Positions 2-18,212 of a stretch of 20,000 nucleotides of DNA are shown here, one piece after another. A program made the translations under genes and the position numbers. The stretch is from Stramenopiles sp. TOSAG23-2 (Eukaryota). The stretch is from the NCBI GenBank assembly GCA_900128395.1, contig LT649242.1, forward strand, positions 55,059 to 75,058, written 5' to 3'. The notes below the pieces were generated by a model. The model was not told the DNA's origin and made no database searches. It saw nothing but the letters and a program-made list of their open reading frames with translations. Positions within the stretch are counted from its first letter, which is position 1. The number at the start of each line of letters is the position of its first letter.

Positions 2-2086
2 ACATGGCAAATGTGTTACACTTCGCTATCCGAGGTAAAAGAGTTAACACCTGAATTTTACTCATTGCCAAATTTTTTAAGAAATGAATCAGGGTGTCCA
101 TTAGGAACCATGCAAGATGGAAATACTGTGAACGATGTACATTTGCCACCCTGGGCAAATGGCTCTCCAGAAACATTTATCGATGTTATGAGACATGCTC
201 TAGAAAGTGAATATGTATCTGCCCATTTACATCAATGGGTAGATTTGATTTTCGGTTTCAAGCAACGAGGAGAAGCTGCTGTTGAAGCAAATAATATATT
301 TTATTATTTAACATATGAAGGTACGGTGAATTTAGATGAAATTGATGATCCAACTTTGCGAAATGCAATGCAATTACAAATTGAGCATTTTGGTCAATGT
401 CCAACACAACTTTTGACCTCGCCACATCCACCTCGTGGTCGCACGATACGTGTGCCACGGCCATTGTACCTAACATTTTTGGGCAAACATGGATATCTAA
501 AAGGACCAAATAATTGTGTTGGCATCGCTGATCTTGCATATATCAATTCACTTGCACCTGGTGTTGGTTCCTTGGTACGATTAGGTTTTGATCCTTTACG
601 CGCCATTGAAGCTTTGGAAAAAACAGATAATTTAAAGTTATGTGCAAATCAACTAGCATTAGGAGGAAAAGCTAGTAAGAACAGTAAATTTTCCGATACG
701 AGTGGTACTGTATATCATAAAACTGAAGAAGGTAAAGCTGTTGTGAGTGTACGTTGCCTTTTTGATTCAATTGAATGTGTTGATGAGAATGGAAAATTAT
801 ATTCGTTTCCATTGGAACGTTTAGATTCAAGAGTTTCATTATCCTCTACGGACAATAATGGAACCAATGCTGCAAAAAATGAGTCTCCAAAGGTAAAGAA
901 AACGAAGTTGTTTGGAACTGATTTTATTCCAATTCGTGTACATCCCTCTGCAAATCCACTGTCGAATAGATACTACTGTACTGTTGTACCTTCTTTGTCT
1001 GATGGTGTTGGAACATTGATGGCGGCGCCGTTAAAAAAATATGAAATGTTATCGCGTGTTACTGCTTGGAGTTCTGGTGGCTTCATCTTAGGCACTGGTG
1101 GTGCATGTCATGGTAGTGTGGAATTTTGGGTAATCGAGCGAACAGACGAAGGTGCGCCATATATTTCAGGATCATTAAGTATCAATGGGCATGAAACCAC
1201 CGTGACACTTGTAACCATATCAAGGGAGATTGTGTTAACTGGTAGTCAAGATGGTGTTGCTATGCTATGGCATTTAAGTAAAGATGCGAATGACAATGCT
1301 ACTTTGTCCAATCGTCCATATCAAATTTTGCGGGGTCATACAAGTGCTTTGACAAGCGGTAGCATCAATAAAACGTGCCAAACTGCTGTCACCGTCTCTG
1401 GTGAACGTTTAGTATTGATTCATAGAATTGAAGAGGCGCCACCTAATGGACAACATGAATTGCTTGGCGATTTACCACTGGTTGAGATCAAATGTGATGA
1501 AATGTCCTTATTGCCGTCAATAACTTCAGCTTCGTGTGTACATACTTGTATCGTGACAGCTGCTGGTGTAATTGTATGTGTTGTGAATAAAACGACATTA
1601 ATTACATATGATATAAATGGTTTGGAAATTATTCGAAAAGATGCAAAAGATGATCATGGTAATTGTGAACAAATCATGGCCATTGAACGGACATCACGCG
1701 GAAATGTTGTTGTTACTGGTGGAGGAAATACTATTTGTTTTTGGTCTGCGCGTACGTTGGGTTTATTGCATTCGTATAAAATAAATACTAGTAGCAACGG
1801 TATTTTATCATTATCTTTATCGTTAAGTGAGGAAATCATGTCAGTTGGTTGCGATGATGGTTTGATTGTCACTGTATGTTTACCAAATTTCCGAGATTTA
1901 AGTGATCCGCACGCTCCTTTACAAAAGCAAATTGCAAACAAATTAAAAGCAAGGCAAAAAGCAGCAAATACATTGGATACTATTATGGGTGCTGGAATAG
2001 ATAATGTGGCAGAGAAAGCAAAAAATGCTGTTAAGAGTGCATTTGGTAGTTTTTCTAATTTATTTGCATCACCAAATAAAAGTTAG
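2..2086 (+). CDS. BEACH domain + WD40 repeat protein (neurobeachin/LRBA/LYST-like), C-terminal part; 5' end lies outside the window
   Basis: The frame is open from base 2 (TWQMCYTSLSEVKELTPEFY). BEACH signatures: VKELTPEFY, DVHLPPWA, ALESEYVSAHLHQWVDLIFGFKQRG, IEHFGQCPTQL. WD40 motifs follow: GHETTVT..LTGSQDGVAMLW, LRGHTSALT, VTGGGNTICFW, VGCDDG. Confidence 0.95.
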   Translation, partial: TWQMCYTSLSEVKELTPEFYSLPNFLRNESGCPLGTMQDGNTVNDVHLPPWANGSPETFIDVMRHALESEYVSAHLHQWVDLIFGFKQRGEAAVEANNIFYYLTYEGTVNLDEIDDPTLRNAMQLQIEHFGQCPTQLLTSPHPPRGRTIRVPRPLYLTFLGKHGYLKGPNNCVGIADLAYINSLAPGVGSLVRLGFDPLRAIEALEKTDNLKLCANQLALGGKASKNSKFSDTSGTVYHKTEEGKAVVSVRCLFDSIECVDENGKLYSFPLERLDSRVSLSSTDNNGTNAAKNESPKVKKTKLFGTDFIPIRVHPSANPLSNRYYCTVVPSLSDGVGTLMAAPLKKYEMLSRVTAWSSGGFILGTGGACHGSVEFWVIERTDEGAPYISGSLSINGHETTVTLVTISREIVLTGSQDGVAMLWHLSKDANDNATLSNRPYQILRGHTSALTSGSINKTCQTAVTVSGERLVLIHRIEEAPPNGQHELLGDLPLVEIKCDEMSLLPSITSASCVHTCIVTAAGVIVCVVNKTTLITYDINGLEIIRKDAKDDHGNCEQIMAIERTSRGNVVVTGGGNTICFWSARTLGLLHSYKINTSSNGILSLSLSLSEEIMSVGCDDGLIVTVCLPNFRDLSDPHAPLQKQIANKLKARQKAANTLDTIMGAGIDNVAEKAKNAVKSAFGSFSNLFASPNKS

Positions 2087-3169: not shown

Positions 3170-3640
3170 ATGAGAATCCACTTCCTCCTTTTGGCATTGG
3201 TTGCTGTTGTTGTATTGTCCCAACATAATGTTGACGCCCGCCTTACCGATCCAGCTATCCGCAGAATGACCGAACACCGCCTCCTCGACGAACTACTTCA
3301 GAGAAGGATGGAAGAGTTGGAAGAAATGGAAGGTGAACAAGGCAGTTTTCAAGATGAATTTGTTGAATCGCGGAGACTTCGTGAAGGTAGGATTTGCAAT
3401 AGGAAACTACCATGTTATACAGATGGTTTTACGGCATGGAAATTCATTTGTATTAATGGGAGATGCAAAAAGACTTGCGATGCGCAATGCCTGCGGAGTT
3501 GCAGAGGAAAATGCAATTGGGCCAAATGCACAAATAAAAAAAAAATATGCACAAGAAAAGATATAAGGGGAAAATGCACGGGGTGGAAAGAAGTTTGTGA
3601 TGACAAATTTAATGAGTGTATGAGGGGCTGTATAGCTTAA
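3170..3640 (+). CDS. Secreted prepro cysteine-rich cationic peptide (defensin/toxin-like organisation), 156 aa
   Basis: Hydrophobic signal peptide MRIHFLLLALVAVVVLSQHNVDA, then an acidic pro region, an RRLR site (3371-3382), and an 85-aa C-terminal domain with 14 Cys. The start context is A-rich (aaacaATG). Confidence 0.85.
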   Translation: MRIHFLLLALVAVVVLSQHNVDARLTDPAIRRMTEHRLLDELLQRRMEELEEMEGEQGSFQDEFVESRRLREGRICNRKLPCYTDGFTAWKFICINGRCKKTCDAQCLRSCRGKCNWAKCTNKKKICTRKDIRGKCTGWKEVCDDKFNECMRGCIA

Positions 3641-4978: not shown

Positions 4979-5068
4979 CGAGATGAGTCTAAAAGAGACT
5001 TTCAGTATTAAGAATGTGAAAAACGAGATGAGTCTAAAAGAGACTTTCAGTATTAAGAATGTGAAAAA
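4979..5068. repeat. Perfect tandem duplication, 2 x 45 bp, in frame and including the start codon
   Basis: cgagatgagtctaaaagagac...gtgaaaaa at 4979-5023 and 5024-5068; gives MSLKETFSIKNVK twice. Confidence 0.95.
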
Positions 5069-7219
5069 GAGATTGTCAACTATTTTGTCAGGACATGGCC
5101 TTTCGCATAATAATATAAAGGACAGCTCGCATGACAATATTGAAGAACGATTCATAAAAATGCTGGAAAGACATCAAAATCGAGCAACAGTCGGTCATTC
5201 GCCGTTGGGTACAGTTGCGAGAAAACATAGAAACAGTATCATTGTTTCTGATCTTGATTCAGATGGGACTCGTAGAGTCAGGACTAGTAAAATTGCACTA
5301 CGATATACGGATATAGAAAAATCGAATATGTTATGGTTTGATACGTTGCAGGTTTCAACAACATTGCTTGGATTTATTTATTTTCTCTCATCGATTGTAC
5401 TTACGCATGTAGAAGAAGCTTATAGAGCAGGTGGAAATGCCAGCAATTTATTGCATGTTGTAATTACTACATTTTATGTGATACTATCATTTTTAATAGT
5501 GATGGCAACGATTTCGATCATTTTTACTTTTCGTTATGCAAAATATTCAAATACAATTTTTAAATTATTGATGAGTTTAGGCAGAACTTGGAGAATTATG
5601 TTTTTATTATCACTACGCCTTCTTTTTGGTTTTTTAGCCTGTATATATGGAGCACCTTTTTCTTCGATGCTAGATGGTATAGCAATATTTGTATTGGGTT
5701 TGGCATTAATATTTCAAGATATTTTGACCATACGTTACAGTCATCCAATTTTAAGAATTTGGGTTCTTTCATTTACATGTGTAATGGAGCACCTTTTTCT
5801 TCGATGCTAGATGGTATAGCAATATTTGTATTGGGTTTGGCATTAATATTTCAAGATATTTTGACCATACGTTACAGTCATCCAATTTTAAGAATTTGGG
5901 TTCTTTCATTTACATGTGTAATGTTTTATACATGGATACGGTCCTTGATAAATAAGGAAGTAAATGACATATCCAATCCACTCATTTTTAATGTGCGATA
6001 CAATACATATATTCGTACAATTTATTCGAGTTTATTTGGAATAATGTTTGATGGTTTACTAATAATAATAAAAGATACAGATAGGAAACAATTTGTTAAG
6101 GAAGTAAATGACATATCCAATCCACTCATTTTTAATGTGCGATACAATACATATATTCGTACAATTTATTCGAGTTTATTTGGAATAATGTTTGATGGTT
6201 TACTAATAATAATAAAAGATACAGATAGGAAACAATTTGTTTGGATCATTAAAAGAAAATTTAGATCAGATTTAAAAGAGATGAATTTAGAAAGTGTGGA
6301 AAATTTTAGTAAATTTCGCAAACAATATAACACGAAACAGCTTGTTGTTATTTTAGTTTCGATATTGGCTCTTGTATTTTATATTTTAGGCGCTGATATA
6401 AGCAATATATATGGAATTGAACCTTCCACTAAGGCTACACTTCACGTTTTGTATTATGTATTTTTCATCATTACTTTTGGGTCTTTCCTGTCATTGTATA
6501 GTGATAATTTCAGTTTCGATTCAATGATATTACTATTGAAGGAACGGCATATGTTCATGTCATGTTTATACTGTTTATCACATTTAATTTTATATGTATA
6601 CTTATATTGGCCACATACTTTAGGTGGTTTTCCAAGTTGTACAAACAAAGATTGCACAATAGTTATACAAAATATAACTGGCAATAGCACTGTTAATACA
6701 ATTGTGAAAGAAATTGGTTATGGAACGTTTACAGATGCTGAAAAAGTTACTAATATAATTCAATCCTTAGTATTTCTTATCCAAGTATTACTTTTTCTAT
6801 CAATGGATTCATTGATTGTAAAATCACCATTTTTAGTTGGAATGGTTGCTGTACTTGGTGGAATAACTATGTTGCAATCTGCCATCGGCGCTGGTTTTCT
6901 TTGGAATACTTGTTATCTAATACCAGGTTTAACGGTTACTCAATGTAGTCTTGAACTAAGTATTTATACGTCCTTGTGTTTTTTATTTTCAGCGTCTATT
7001 TATACTGCAATTAGAGATCGTAAATTTAAGCGTTTTTTGTTTATACATGAAGCTGTTTATTGCCAAACAATGACAAATAGTCATAATAGACGAAACACTT
7101 CTATGTTAAATGCAACTAGTGTTCAAAATATGAAGCGCTTAAGTGCAATGGAGGAATGGATTGGTAATTTAGATGATATAGAATTCGAAGTACCTGTAGA
7201 AGAGGAAGTGATTATATGA
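4983..7219 (+). CDS. Polytopic membrane protein of unknown function; one gene frameshifted by a 137-bp tandem duplication (about 636 aa once all three internal duplications are collapsed)
   Basis: ORFs 4983-5810 and 5588-7219 share GAPFSSMLDG...LSFTCVM. Removing one 137-bp copy (137 mod 3 = 2, equal to the frame offset) fuses them. A soluble N-terminus is followed by many hydrophobic helices. Confidence 0.8.
5647..5920. repeat. Perfect tandem duplication, 2 x 137 bp, frameshifting
   Basis: atggagcacc...tacatgtgta at 5647-5783 and 5784-5920, with ATG microhomology at the junction. Confidence 0.95.
5953..6240. repeat. Perfect tandem duplication, 2 x 144 bp, in frame (48 aa)
   Basis: taaggaagtaaatgac...aacaatttgt at 5953-6096 and 6097-6240; KEVNDISN...DRKQFV occurs twice. 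Confidence 0.95.
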
Positions 7220-9948: not shown

Positions 9949-10821
9949 ATGAATTTTTTTTTTTATATAAAGGCATATCGAAAGTTGTGTGTCGTCTGTC
10001 TTCGAAACTTGTTTATTTCATTTACATATATATAACATATATAGAAAGAAATAGCTGGTGAAATAAACATTAAACCGCTTCAATTTCTGTATTATCGATT
10101 TTATATATAATGAAAATACTGCATATATATATATATATACACACACGTACATGATATATATATTTTATATATATATTTCAAAATATGTGCTTGTGATTTC
10201 TAAAATGATTATTTAAAATAAAAGAAACCGTGAAATTGTCATGTGTCATTTACACGACAATAAAAATTTCTCAATACATTAACACAATATATGGAGATAC
10301 ATCCACGTGTTTATAACATGAACTAAAAAATTAAGAAAAAATATTTTATTATATTTCAATTTAAATATAAAAACACAGTTTTGTTTAAAAAAAAAATATA
10401 TATATATATAATATAAAGAACACTCTGACAACCTCTGTAGAGTCGTGTCTCACAAACGCATGTACAGACAATCTCTTGGGTTTTAAAGCGACTTATCAAA
10501 TCACTTTCATGATAATACAAAAATATAAGTTAAGAGGGCTTTCTTTCGGTTCCATCCTTGCAATACTACTACTATTACCAGGTAGCTAGCATTAGTAATA
10601 ATACCTTAACATGGAATAGATATATATACTTTTGTTTTTTTTACATACATACACAATAATATAATAATATTTTTGTTTTTTGTGTATTTAAAAACAAACA
10701 AATTGAAAAGTTGTTTATAAAAAGAATGTCGAAAAGGAAATCGTTACATGTCTATATCGTCGTCTTTATTTATTTACTTGCAATTAGGAAGATCAATACG
10801 CATACAAAACCATATATAAAG

Positions 10822-11664
10822 ATGGAGCAAACAAATCATTTAGTAACTACTAATGTAGTAGAAGTAAATACTAGTAGTGAAACAGTAAATAATAATAATA
10901 ATAATAATAATCAACGGCCATCAACACCAACAACTGTTGTTCAAAATAATAATAACAATAATAATAATAACAGCAGCAGCAGCAATAGTCAGAATGCATT
11001 TGCAAATGATGTAGTACAAAACACATCAAATATATTAAGAACGGGTCGTGAAGAAGTATATCGCTCCTTTCATTCGCCACTAAGTGAAACCTCACAAAGA
11101 TCACCATCAAGCTATTCACCATTGCAACAACAACAACAACAATATAGTTCTAACTACATACCACCGTCTCCACCAGCAACTACTTCACATGAATATTTTT
11201 ATCAAGCTATGCCACATACCATGCAACAACAAAAATATAGACGTAACGTGCAGCTAGATGATATAAAATACCAATTAGATAGATCGTTGCATTTGCTTAG
11301 GCGTGAGCTTGATAATAGAATAGAACGTATAGAAGAAGACGTTAGCCGTACACGTATCGAAACCAATAAATTACGTGGAGTTGCATTTTTAAGAGAAGAA
11401 GATCATTTACGAATATTATCATCCATACAACAATTAAAGGAAACAAATGCTTTGATTAGTAATACGAATATTTCCCTAGAACAGAAATTGAAGCTATATC
11501 CAACTAGAAATGAAATGGATACATTTTTATTATCTACTATTGATCCAATCAAAAGTGAATTCAATACTAAAATAGATCATTCAAGTCAACAATTAAAAAA
11601 ATTAAATAATATATATTTAAAAGTTGATAAAGAGATTAAACGTCAAGCAAAAATCAGCCGTAAC

Positions 11665-11710
<46 letters not shown>

Positions 11711-12312
11711 GACTTGGTGATATATCACCTATTGATAATAATAGTGATAAGAGTGGAAATAGCAATGCACCTAAAATAAATGTAGAATATATTATAGAAC
11801 AAGTTGAAGCGCGTTTATTTCATCGACTGGAAAAAATGATTGTGGATCGTGTTGATTTAATATCATTAAGGTCTCAAGATAAATTATTTAATAAATTCAA
11901 TGACTCATTAAACGATAAAATCAGTAAAGTAATACAAAGTGAAGTCCAGGATTATTTGAAAAAAAGCTCGTTTGTAAATGGTGGTGGTGGGCGAGCAGGG
12001 TTATTATTAAATGAGCACGATGTGTATCATAAAAAACAATATCAAAAAAAAGATGCTATATATGCAGAGGAAAGACTTATTATGAAAGATAGTATGAAAC
12101 AAATTGGAAAAGAACAGAAATTAATGCAGAATAGTTTGATATCTCTAAGAACACAAGTTCGAGCTTTGGCGAGAGTAGTATCTTCAGTGAAAGGCGATGT
12201 AGCTAATCTAATGAAAATCCAACAAGAAATGGCATTAAATGATACTGATAAAAATAATAAGACTGGCGGTAATGAGGAAGTAGTACCTTTAGGTTTGTAT
12301 CATAGTCGATGA
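10822..12312 (+). CDS. Hypothetical protein with Asn/Gln/Ser-rich disordered N-terminus and long coiled-coil segments (about 496 aa)
   Basis: Long ORF; the likely start is the ATG at 10822 (aaagATGg, MEQTN), although an upstream in-frame ATG exists. Poly-N and poly-Q tracts, heptad-like segments (LRRELDNRIERIEEDV; LISLRTQVRALARVVSSVKGDV). No recognised domain. Confidence 0.75.
11662..11709. repeat. (AAT)n coding microsatellite encoding poly-Asn
   Basis: A run of AAT triplets in frame. Similar tracts occur at about 10888-10911 and 10945-10971, and (AAC)n at about 16679-16705. Confidence 0.9.
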
Positions 12313-15544: not shown

Positions 15545-16177
15545 ATTGGTTCTTATTTTTTAATTTACCAATAGAATTTCTAAATCTTATCAAAAGAAAA
15601 AATAAATAAAAAAACAGACAACAAAGAAACAAAAATGTGGAAATATTATTATTCTTATATTTATTATAGTTTGCTATCTCGTTCTATCTTCTGGATTTGT
15701 ATCGTTTACTCTTGTGATGTTTCTTATATAACACAGTTGTATAATATATGTTGATGATACCGTGTAGTCCATCACACAATTTACATTTCATAGTTCAATT
15801 TACACTGAAATTTTGAAAACTTAGTAACGTCTCGATTAATTATTTGCCATATATATAGGAAGAATTTCAGTATAATATTTTATTAGTCTAATTTAGAACT
15901 TCGTGTTTATGTTCGGCGACTGTTCAAGGACCAACATTTTTTAGAAGATCACAAATAATTAAAATGATGATCATACAACGTTAAAAGCATGTTAAAAATA
16001 TTATAGGACTATTTTATAGATATTTACTAATACACAGGACTAATATATATAACTTTTTACCACAAATATATGTATAACAAAAAACAACCAAGAAAACGTA
16101 TATCATCTATCATATGAACTTCATCGAACAGTAATAGGGAGAAAGTAAAACATAATTCATTTGTATTTTTTAACAAA

Positions 16178-17851
16178 ATGGGAAATGAACAATCAATTAT
16201 GAATCAACCTGGTCATTGGGATTATTTTATTTCATATGCAACGGTTGATGCAAGCATAATTGCTGAAAAAATATATTCATCCATGACACTGCATCTGCCA
16301 TGGGCACTACGAAAAAAATGTTGGCTAGATGTGTATATGAAAGCAAGGGATGCCGATGCAATGGAAGAAGGAGTTAAAAATTCTAAAACATTCGTACTTG
16401 TTCTGAGCAAATTATATTTTACCCGAGATTGGTGTCGTAAAGAAATACAATGGGCTATAAAATATAAAATACCGACGGTAATTGTTACTGACGTCAAATA
16501 CAAAGATAAAATTGGCAATTTGTTAAAGAAATGCCCTACAAGTTTAGTATCCAATATCACTTCATTCAATGTTATTGATTTAAATTTGCGTGATTCTCAA
16601 TATTTTAATCTTGGTATGCAAATGATAAATGAATCGAATCGAAAGCTAATGTTTGGAAATTATCGTTTAAGCGCCGACAACAACAACAACAACAACAACA
16701 ACAACGAGGACAACAACAATGACCTCGAAAAATCTCCATTACTTTATTTGCCATCTGGAATATATTCATCATCAGGAGAAGATGACGAAAATGATAGTGA
16801 TATTGTAGAAGAAGGAACCATTACGTGTGGTATTGCTAATAGTGATTCGCAACAAGCTGCTATTGAATTTAGCACGGTGAACAGAGATCACAAAAGTTCT
16901 ATCGAACCTGATTGGGATTTAGGCTTGGTAATACGTGCTGAAAAAGATCCACTTGAACTGATGGAGGAATATCGTAATGAATTTCCAATTACGCCAAGAG
17001 GAAGACCAAGTCCATTCGTTGTTGCGTGCGAAAAAGGACGTTTTGTGGATGTCAAACTTTTCATTAAAGGTTACAAACGTGTTCATGGTGCTGATAGTAA
17101 TGTTTATGCTATGGTTATAGAGCCAGGTAAAAATAGCCATGGTTATATAATGCCACCGATAGTGGCAGCTGCATACAATGAACACCATGATATTGTCGCT
17201 TATTTAATTCAAAATGATTGCAAGAAGCATGATGTGATTGATTTTCTGACAAATGAATACAAGAAAGAATTTCCTCCGACGTTGATGGGAGCACCCGATC
17301 CATTTGTAGTTGCATGTGAAAAGGGTCGTTTTGCAGATGTTAAATTGTTTGTTATGTATCATGATCAACATACGTCTGGGATTACAGTGCAAGAAATGAT
17401 AAACCGGAAAGGCAAAACAACAAAATGCTTCAATCGTACAGCATTAATGAAAGCTGCTAAATATGAATACGATGAAATCGTGAAATATTTATTGGAACAT
17501 GGTGCAGATCCTACTATTCAAACTGAAGGAGGTAGAAATTCCCTTCATTTTGCAGCAATGTATTCTAAAAGAAATATGAATACAATAATGATATTATTGG
17601 ATCGAATGCTTAAGAAACATTATGACATCAATTGTAGGACTTTACGTCGAAAATTTACCCCTGTTGATTATGTTTATTTTTCCAACAGTTCCGAATTTAA
17701 AGATCATATACTTCGATTATTGCGTTTTTATGGAGGTAAAGGAAATAAATTTGATGACGATAATGGTCAACTTCTAGTAACATGTCCAGGATTTTGTCCA
17801 GGTTTCAGTCGCGTGTGTCTGAATTTGCATTATAAACTTTTACAGGATTGA
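16178..17851 (+). CDS. TIR-domain (TIR_2-like) ankyrin-repeat protein with N-myristoylation motif, 557 aa
   Basis: MGNEQS start. TIR motifs WDYFISY, CWLD, AMEEGVKNSKTFVLVLSKLYFTRDWCRKEIQWA. Poly-Asn/acidic linker. Ankyrin repeats including RTALMKAAKYEYDEIVKYLLEHGADPT and GRNSLHFAA. Confidence 0.9.
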   Translation: MGNEQSIMNQPGHWDYFISYATVDASIIAEKIYSSMTLHLPWALRKKCWLDVYMKARDADAMEEGVKNSKTFVLVLSKLYFTRDWCRKEIQWAIKYKIPTVIVTDVKYKDKIGNLLKKCPTSLVSNITSFNVIDLNLRDSQYFNLGMQMINESNRKLMFGNYRLSADNNNNNNNNNEDNNNDLEKSPLLYLPSGIYSSSGEDDENDSDIVEEGTITCGIANSDSQQAAIEFSTVNRDHKSSIEPDWDLGLVIRAEKDPLELMEEYRNEFPITPRGRPSPFVVACEKGRFVDVKLFIKGYKRVHGADSNVYAMVIEPGKNSHGYIMPPIVAAAYNEHHDIVAYLIQNDCKKHDVIDFLTNEYKKEFPPTLMGAPDPFVVACEKGRFADVKLFVMYHDQHTSGITVQEMINRKGKTTKCFNRTALMKAAKYEYDEIVKYLLEHGADPTIQTEGGRNSLHFAAMYSKRNMNTIMILLDRMLKKHYDINCRTLRRKFTPVDYVYFSNSSEFKDHILRLLRFYGGKGNKFDDDNGQLLVTCPGFCPGFSRVCLNLHYKLLQD

Positions 17852-18212
17852 AATTTCATTTATATAAAAATATCATCTCTCAGAGAAGGGTAAAATTCAT
17901 GAGTGTTTTAATTGAAAATTTAAAAAAAACGAGAAAAATTTACCACACATATACACTATATTTTTTAATTTTTATTTTTTTTATTTTTTACGCGCACACA
18001 CACACACATGTTACACACTTGTGTTTTCTCACGCGTTAAAATTGGTTTGTTTTTTCTTTTGGGTGTAGCATTTAAAAATAAATTTATTCTTCCTCTTCGA
18101 TTTTATAAACGCGAGTACCAATGAAAATCGTAATTAACATATATATGATAAAAAAAAATACGAGTTCGTATATGGTACGAAGTATGGTATACACACATCA
18201 AATTTAAAAGCT

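Follow-up and report, generated by a model that had tools for sequence, protein, structure and literature searches.

An N-terminal TIR domain with an active-site-type glutamate joined to ankyrin repeats: a candidate membrane-proximal NAD+-consuming protein of a marine protist

An open reading frame (ORF) in a 20,000-nucleotide stretch of contig LT649242.1 from Stramenopiles sp. TOSAG23-2 (hereafter the window, meaning the whole stretch of DNA analyzed) is a real gene of a marine single-celled eukaryote, and its product joins an N-terminal TIR domain to C-terminal ankyrin (ANK) repeats. By analogy with characterized relatives, this TIR domain most likely consumes NAD+, using Glu89. The interpretation that we favor, tentatively and at a little less than even confidence, is that of a TIR enzyme that consumes NAD+ close to a membrane and clusters under the control of the ANK module. 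TIR enzymes form a link between the immune systems of bacteria, plants and animals, and tests of what they do in free-living protists have only just begun. The gene described here, from a marine eukaryote that is uncultured and apparently widespread, is a compact candidate for SARM1-like TIR chemistry in the plankton; it bears on whether lipid anchors replace transmembrane (TM) receptors and on how freely TIR domains recombine with sensor-type repeats. An active protein would be a tractable addition to a family with a possible influence on how viruses and hosts, and predators and prey, interact in the ocean; an inactive one would be one more uncharacterized repeat protein.

Our working model is as follows. 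The gene product would be located in the cytoplasm of a marine picoeukaryote or nanoeukaryote and consist of two modules. Its TIR domain would cleave NAD+ via Glu89 of a WxxxE motif, like SARM1 and the plant and bacterial TIRs, and would be a glycohydrolase or a cyclase depending on its products. A disordered linker of ~100 residues would connect the TIR domain to the ANK module, which is most likely the protein-binding, regulatory or targeting part. Myristate on Gly2 would keep the TIR domain at the membrane surface because the lipid would sit just ~11 residues before the first TIR strand. Activity would need clustering of TIR domains, as in other TIR enzymes, and clustering would presumably be brought about when a ligand binds the ANK module or when the proteins crowd together at the membrane. 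Catalysis, lipidation, oligomerization, sensing by the ANK module and a role in defense or regulated cell death are all steps that we infer.

TIR fold and active-site glutamate

The TIR assignment is supported both by profile and by predicted structure. Residues 17-95 match Pfam TIR_2 (PF13676) with an E-value of 3.3e-10 (40.9 bits versus a cut-off of 28). For residues 1-165, an AlphaFold2 (AF2) model derived from an alignment of 17 sequences has a mean predicted local distance difference test score (pLDDT) of 87.1 and a predicted template modeling score of 0.83, and consists of five strands alternating with helices over residues 14-152. The top Foldseek match of this model was the TIR domain of human SARM1 (E 1.4e-7), followed by RPP1, RUN1, TIR-1, TIR-STING, SPARTA and AbTir; there were 107 PDB matches at E <= 0.001, and all those listed are TIR domains. 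When residues 13-155 were superposed with VIA-align on SARM1 561-700, the Z score was 18.2 and the root-mean-square deviation 2.0 Å over 129 residues, with 25% identity. A preliminary description of this DNA had proposed a TIR fold for residues 13-155, and the predicted model bears this out; the profile check that it suggested gave TIR_2 and Ank matches that both lie above the Pfam cut-offs.

At the sequence level the nearest solved relative is BtpA/TcpB (E 0.0014 for the single sequence, 3e-8 for the family profile), and the family profile also matches AbTir (1e-5), PdTIR, Cat1, RPS4, SARM1 and RUN1. In the protein atlas the nearest entries are TIR_2 clusters of bacteria, haptophytes and rotifers, with 143-158 shared features and scores of 0.92-0.93 that fall under the level separating true family members from chance, and these clusters thus serve as a lead only. 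Matches in PADLOC were weak (PDC-S66 at 4e-5; ThsB at E 0.0016 and 15.8 bits).

The motifs quoted in the preliminary description are all in place (DYFISY at residues 15-20, WLD at 49-51, EEGVKNSKTFVLVLS at 63-77 and WCRKE at 85-89), as is the Glu89 codon, GAA at 16442-16444. W85 and E89 align with the W and E of the BtpA segment W-P-A-R-E, which are W213 and E217. E89, which we take to be equivalent to SARM1 E642, also aligns with AbTir residue 208 (chain index plus structure numbering) and with the PdTIR Glu. The placement of Glu89 at the catalytic TIR position is thus upheld by its alignment with BtpA E217 and AbTir E208. In the W213xxxE217 motif of BtpA, E217 is the essential catalytic residue (PMC7188309), and an E208A mutant of AbTir is inactive (preprint 10.1101/2023.05.19.541320).

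Of 92 aligned domain rows, 81 have E in the column of E89, 2 have V, 1 has Q and 8 have a gap, so that Glu occupies 81 of the 84 ungapped rows. D51 is kept in 83/84 related TIR domain rows, and W49, S19, C86 and A93 are nearly as constant across the rows as these two residues. Protist TIRs that bear the Glu can make isomers of cyclic ADP-ribose (cADPR) (preprint 10.64898/2026.04.20.719644): in that study the TIRs of Salpingoeca, Dictyostelium, Guillardia and Phytophthora made cADPR in a Glu-dependent manner, and a Chlamydomonas TIR made 3'cADPR.

Table 1. Positions of the TIR-ANK gene, its parts and the neighboring genes in the window
Feature	Position	Strand	Basis or remark
BEACH-WD40 gene, 3' part, runs off left window end	2-2086	+	Beach E 4.9e-56
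Two-HMG-box protein, 172 aa	7902-8420	-	HMG_box E 3e-36
Two-HMG-box protein, 167 aa	9445-9948	+	HMG_box E 6e-39
DnaJ + two FN3 + WW protein, 943 aa	12713-15544	-	Long low-complexity Ser/Asn/Pro stretches
TIR-ANK gene, whole ORF	16178-17851	+	Single open frame, 557 codons + TGA stop
N-myristoylation-type motif MGNEQSI, codons 1-7	16178-16198	+	Pattern match: Gly2, Asn3, Ser6, no Pro7
TIR domain, residues 13-155	16214-16642	+	Pfam TIR_2, AF2 model, Foldseek, VIA-align
WxxxE active-site motif, W85-C-R-K-E89	16430-16444	+	Alignment with BtpA, PdTIR, AbTir
Disordered linker, residues 156-254	16643-16939	+	pLDDT < 50; (AAC)n Asn run, acidic stretches
Ankyrin-repeat region, residues 255-533	16940-17776	+	Pfam Ank families; pLDDT mostly 87-97
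Cys-rich C-terminal tail (CPGF CPGF ... C), residues 534-557	17777-17848	+	pLDDT < 50
GH28 polygalacturonase-type glycosyl hydrolase, 424 aa	18213-19487	-	Glyco_hydro_28 E 1.7e-41

Linker, ankyrin region and tail

The remainder of the protein also agrees with the preliminary description, which had placed a poly-Asn/acidic spacer and C-terminal ankyrin repeats behind the TIR domain: the pLDDT falls below 50 across residues 156-254, and the Pfam Ank families follow. The mean pLDDT of the full-length model is 74.7. The Asn run and acidic spacer occupy residues 167-213 or thereabouts, the linker DNA includes a flagged repeat at 16668-16722, and the length of the Asn run differs between alleles. 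In the ANK region, Ank_2 scored 59.6 bits versus a cut-off of 27.3; Ank (48 bits), Ank_3 (50.2 bits), Ank_4 and Ank_5 were likewise above their cut-offs, and the best stretch is residues 403-476. Foldseek matched the region to FEM1B, ankyrin-B and DARPins at E about 1e-8. An attempt to predict a complex between the ANK region and the TIR domain, made without alignments or controls, returned a score of 0.00, which speaks neither for nor against binding.

Within the ANK region there are two copies of a module, 'YxxEFP..P(F/L)VVACEKGRFxDVKLF', with relatives at 31-43% identity in many marine proteins. Three of these relatives (P0008, P0010 and P0148) have a CaaX box where our protein has its Cys-rich tail, and four others (P0004, P0162, P0166 and P0199) share a C-terminal '...(I/V)(T/I)IKF' peptide. 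The same tail contains the Kyte-Doolittle maximum of our protein, which is just 1.22 in a 19-residue window, and we therefore see no TM-like segment. Together with a Pfam search that found no NB-ARC, NACHT or LRR at E <= 1, this agrees with the earlier statement that the protein has neither a TM helix nor these domains.

Among near-identical alleles, 3 of 155 positions are variable in the TIR part and 23 of 279 in the ANK part; 10 of the latter come from a mis-modeled stretch of P0003 (see below), leaving 13/279. Although the numbers are small, such a pattern would be expected if the effector is conserved and the binding part attached to it varies more.

The TIR subfamily

Among the best 150 matches in a scan of 1.8 billion representatives, five aligned with the TIR part (35-51% identity), and most of the others were ankyrin proteins. 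The partners of the TIR domain in these five are TPR repeats (P0170 and P0175), thioredoxin-SPRY-kinase (P0181), Tudor repeats (P0246) and none (P0225), and Pfam finds TIR_2 and TPR alone in P0170. A profile of seven TIR parts retrieved 73 proteins at E <= 1e-5. Among the domains that accompany TIR in these proteins are kinase, TPR, Tudor, ARM, SAM, WD40, LRR, Roc-COR and helicase, as well as FYVE-macro, PARP, kinesin, MORN, NACHT and ANK, and the named sources are green algae, one haptophyte and one MAST-4 stramenopile. A TIR-only word search restricted to proteins of 306-975 aa recovered the two orthologs alone and missed the relatives found later, so it was uninformative.

We also looked for relatives outside the eukaryotes. 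In IMG/VR viral contigs, 11 stretches fitted a pattern scan based on the TIR alignment; none of them was confirmed, and a viral origin was set aside on this result. A scan of 185,579 prokaryote genomes with two signature peptides matched 12 stretches, with none confirmed. Because neither scan gave a confirmed relative, the TIR subfamily appears to be eukaryotic, as far as such limited scans reach.

A quick maximum-likelihood tree was made from 67 rows, with domains matching <110 profile positions left out and the careful search incomplete. It places our protein in a 15-row clade (Shimodaira-Hasegawa-like approximate likelihood ratio test support of 98) where its neighbors are TPR, kinase and signal-peptide-bearing proteins. 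Other TIR+ANK proteins sit, with moderate support, in clades other than this one, and since they are separate the TIR-ANK fusions seem to have arisen several times independently.

Some members of the subfamily have the domains of SARM1. P0045 / P0136 (marine metagenome, 353 aa) has TIR - SAM - ARM, the SARM1 domain set in reverse order, as called by Pfam (TIR_2, SAM_TNK/SAM_2 and Arm). In addition, P0290 and P0304 are TIR+ARM proteins and P0298 is SAM+TIR.

Proposed membrane anchoring and catalysis, and alternative interpretations

Several points weigh against a membrane-proximal, NAD+-consuming enzyme. With regard to catalysis, the Glu alone is a poor predictor of activity, because, among 29 TIRs of unicellular eukaryotes that carry it, only 4 yielded a detectable product in E. 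coli (10.64898/2026.04.20.719644). W85 is not conserved among the family rows (F 28, M 22, Y 21, W 4), and in the quick tree our TIR domain is on a long branch (0.94). With regard to anchoring, those relatives in which the TIR domain is N-terminal begin 2-6 residues before an LNxPGxW motif and lack Gly2 (P0045, P0290, P0293, P0296, P0312 and P0341), and the excess of myristoylation motifs in the family is small (3 of 71 non-orthologous family rows versus 2 of ~270 other fetched proteins). Finally, the RNA-library contigs that cover the gene prove neither transcription nor strand nor 5' end.

The N-terminus MGNEQSI fits the PROSITE-type N-myristoylation pattern G-{EDRKHPFYW}-x(2)-[STAGCN]-{P}, and to the extent of such a pattern match the MGxxxS motif named in the preliminary description holds. 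The same residues resemble the N-terminus of calcineurin B. Gly2 is probably myristoylated; fitting the pattern does not by itself prove lipidation. It is conceivable, albeit not very likely, that the same TIR-ANK enzyme is soluble, either with MGNEQS unused by N-myristoyltransferase or with its start at Met8, and that it is a cytosolic protein regulated by the ANK module only. In favor of this, the pattern is a short, permissive one that is weakly enriched in the family. Furthermore, Met8 falls exactly at the Leu of LNxPGxW; because the N-terminal-TIR relatives begin just before this motif, a start at Met8 would give the protein an N-terminus like that of its homologs, and Met8 is a possible start codon. 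Against this, (i) the first ATG to follow the in-frame TAA 20 codons upstream is that at 16178; (ii) it stands in the context AAAATGG, with A at -3 and G at +4; (iii) a contig from a poly(A) library begins at 16150, 28 nt 5' of ATG 16178, and crosses that ATG with no other ATG in between; (iv) Gly2 and Ser6 are kept in a diverged ortholog (MGNKQS) despite the change E4K; and (v) MGxC..S or CaaX motifs are found independently in other members of the family.

These other anchors can be listed briefly. The myristoylation pattern is found in 5 of the 73 family rows, two of which are the orthologs of our protein; the other three, P0301 (MGLCAS), P0310 (MGICTS) and P0302 (MGCGAS), each have a neighboring Cys that would be suited to palmitoylation. 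There is a C-terminal CaaX in P0170, P0246 and P0308, and P0298 ends in CC. Overall, lipid-anchor motifs occur in 9/73 TIR family members. Besides MGNEQS in our protein, they comprise MGxC..S (three rows) and CaaX or CC (four rows). The enrichment is suggestive, not significant. Because such motifs recur here and in the three ANK-module relatives with CaaX, many of these TM-less proteins may be tethered to membranes.

A further alternative keeps the protein at the membrane but dispenses with catalysis. The TIR domain would then be a non-catalytic assembly module of the MyD88/TRAM type that nucleates a membrane complex, with the ANK repeats recruiting partners; we think this quite unlikely. There is a known protein of this general kind in TRAM (TICAM2), a myristoylated, TM-less TIR adaptor that is held at membranes in animal TLR4 signaling. 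Set beside our protein by description, TRAM is likewise an N-terminally lipidated TIR protein without a TM segment, but it has no ANK repeats, and it is not known to be an NADase. The TIR model does superpose on adaptor and receptor TIRs (Z of 14.9 each for MyD88 and IL-18Rbeta, 13.8 for TLR15), and the protist survey cited above found no product for 25 of its 29 Glu-bearing TIRs (10.64898/2026.04.20.719644). Nevertheless, the top matches are enzymes, namely SARM1 with a Z of 18.2 versus ~15 for the adaptors, and BtpA and AbTir by sequence. Moreover, nearly all rows retain the Glu even though their architectures differ widely, a pattern that speaks for chemistry, and not interfaces only, being under selection. 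The partners of the family include macro and PARP domains, both of which are tied to ADP-ribose chemistry.

It is also doubtful, in our view, but worth considering that the TIR domain is catalytic in a role other than immunity, such as setting the NAD+ level, programmed cell death, or feeding/phagosome signaling in a heterotrophic flagellate. The closest structure is that of SARM1, which acts in axon degeneration, and P0045 carries the SARM1 domains in another order. The genes that neighbor ours are ordinary ones (BEACH-WD40, HMG-box, DnaJ-FN3-WW and GH28). On the other hand, the extensive shuffling of this TIR domain with NACHT, LRR, WD40, TPR, Roc-COR, kinase and helicase partners is the usual mark of conflict systems, and algal TIR genes respond to a giant virus, those with the conserved Glu marking virus-resistant Gephyrocapsa huxleyi (PMC12489294); neither of these points is specific to this gene.

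Returning to the membrane-proximal NAD+-consuming enzyme that we favor, a broader version of the idea can be formulated, though we consider it improbable as it stands. Marine protists may possess a set of lipid-anchored TIR enzymes in which acyl or prenyl anchors have repeatedly replaced TM receptors, and which would signal through or deplete NAD+ from the inner membrane face when their ANK, TPR or WD40 repeats catch a viral or bacterial protein. If true, this set would be a TM-less counterpart of Toll-like receptor surveillance that runs on SARM1-type chemistry. The membrane envisaged for the anchored TIR domain could be, for instance, the plasma membrane or a bacterivore's phagosome.

Relation to known TIR systems

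The architecture, which the preliminary description did not recognize among characterized proteins, has in fact been seen before. Several species of choanoflagellates are described as having intracellular TIR proteins that lack a TM segment and are fused to Ank or Arm repeats (PMC6040629), and our protein resembles those with Ank. These choanoflagellate proteins, like the catalytic protist TIRs, belong to other lineages and are likened to ours by description, and a lipid-anchor motif is unmentioned in the available text of the sources. Closer to hand, CYMTET_38170 of the green alga Cymbomonas tetramitiformis (P0293) belongs to the same TIR subfamily (E 4e-44) and has TIR_2 at residues 13-108 followed by Ank at 297-375, and there are four more TIR+ANK members in the family (P0331, P0313, P0294 and P0346). 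All five differ from our protein in that they sit in other clades of the tree, have no Gly2 and have ANK repeats that are not of the 'ACEKGRFxDVKLF' module. The protein is thus an uncharacterized intracellular protist TIR fused to repeats, and such proteins have already been reported.

As for better-known systems, the best structural match is to SARM1 (129/131 residues), and Caenorhabditis elegans TIR-1 has a Z of 17.0. Both share with our protein a WxxxE-type Glu and a helical-repeat module joined to the TIR domain. Unlike SARM1, our protein has no ARM or SAM by Pfam, carries its TIR domain at the N-terminal and not the C-terminal end, uses ankyrin repeats, and has a lipidation motif in place of a mitochondrial targeting part. 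With no Arm or SAM family and an order other than ARM - SAM - SAM - TIR, a SARM1 ortholog was ruled out. BtpA/TcpB, AbTir and PdTIR, the closest solved relatives by sequence, align at the active-site motif with W85 and E89 of our protein (BtpA) or with its E89 (AbTir and PdTIR), and have a coiled-coil partner in place of ANK. Thoeris ThsB was rejected in view of a Pfam ThsB_TIR score of 13 bits versus a cut-off of 21.2, the low PADLOC score given above and the lack of a ThsA-like neighbor in the window. A TIR-NLR/STAND receptor was rejected as well, as neither NB-ARC nor NACHT was found at E <= 1 and what lies between the TIR and ANK parts is a disordered linker.

Surveys of TIR diversity provide some further context. 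One of them describes a eukaryotic group of diverse architectures that includes green-alga TIRs (PMC7075850), and a survey of plant TIRs places algal TIRs outside the land-plant groups (PMC9806590). A term search within PMC7075850 found no mention of ankyrin or myristoylation, and searches of the available text of 10.64898/2026.04.20.719644 and PMC12489294 found no mention of ankyrin; the supplementary tables of these papers may hold closer relatives.

RNA-library contigs and gene models

The gene recurs in other marine material. P0002, on other marine metagenome contigs, is 98% identical over the full length and belongs to a cluster of 24 members, and the ortholog P0003, from a eukaryote protein set, is 91-95% identical. 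A search for close relatives in JGI metagenome contigs gave 572 pattern matches, none of which was confirmed.

RNA-library contigs from four runs in four studies fall on the ORF at 90-100% likeness and cover it in pieces (16150-16613 and 16847-17861). No splice joints were seen in these contigs over the parts of the ORF that they cover; positions 16640-16787 have no RNA-contig cover, and the repeat there was skipped. Contigs from two studies both end at 17861, 10 nt past the stop codon; this hints, weakly at most, at a 3' end.

The public gene model of P0003 differs from ours in two places. It drops residues 146-212 as an in-frame GT...AG intron (16611-16811 in the window); the frame is open across these residues in every allele, and the RNA contigs do not bridge that part. 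It also carries unrelated letters in place of residues about 520-531, which is probably a mis-prediction in low-complexity DNA.

Neighboring genes

The DNA around the gene is AT-rich (about 29-36% G+C), and the window looks like ordinary gene-dense eukaryotic DNA (Table 1). Four further ORFs on the + strand, of 156-528 aa (3170-3640, 4983-5810, 5777-7219 and 10726-12312), had no Pfam match at E <= 0.001. The two HMG-box genes are divergently oriented and lie about 1 kb apart, and the domain set of the 943-aa DnaJ-FN3-WW protein is an unusual combination. Just 3' of the TIR-ANK gene, positions 17957-18019 hold a T-rich run and, after it, a (CA)n microsatellite, flagged as a repeat. The GH28 protein encoded beyond it has a hydrophobic, signal-peptide-like N-terminus and would fit a secreted enzyme that degrades pectin or another polysaccharide.

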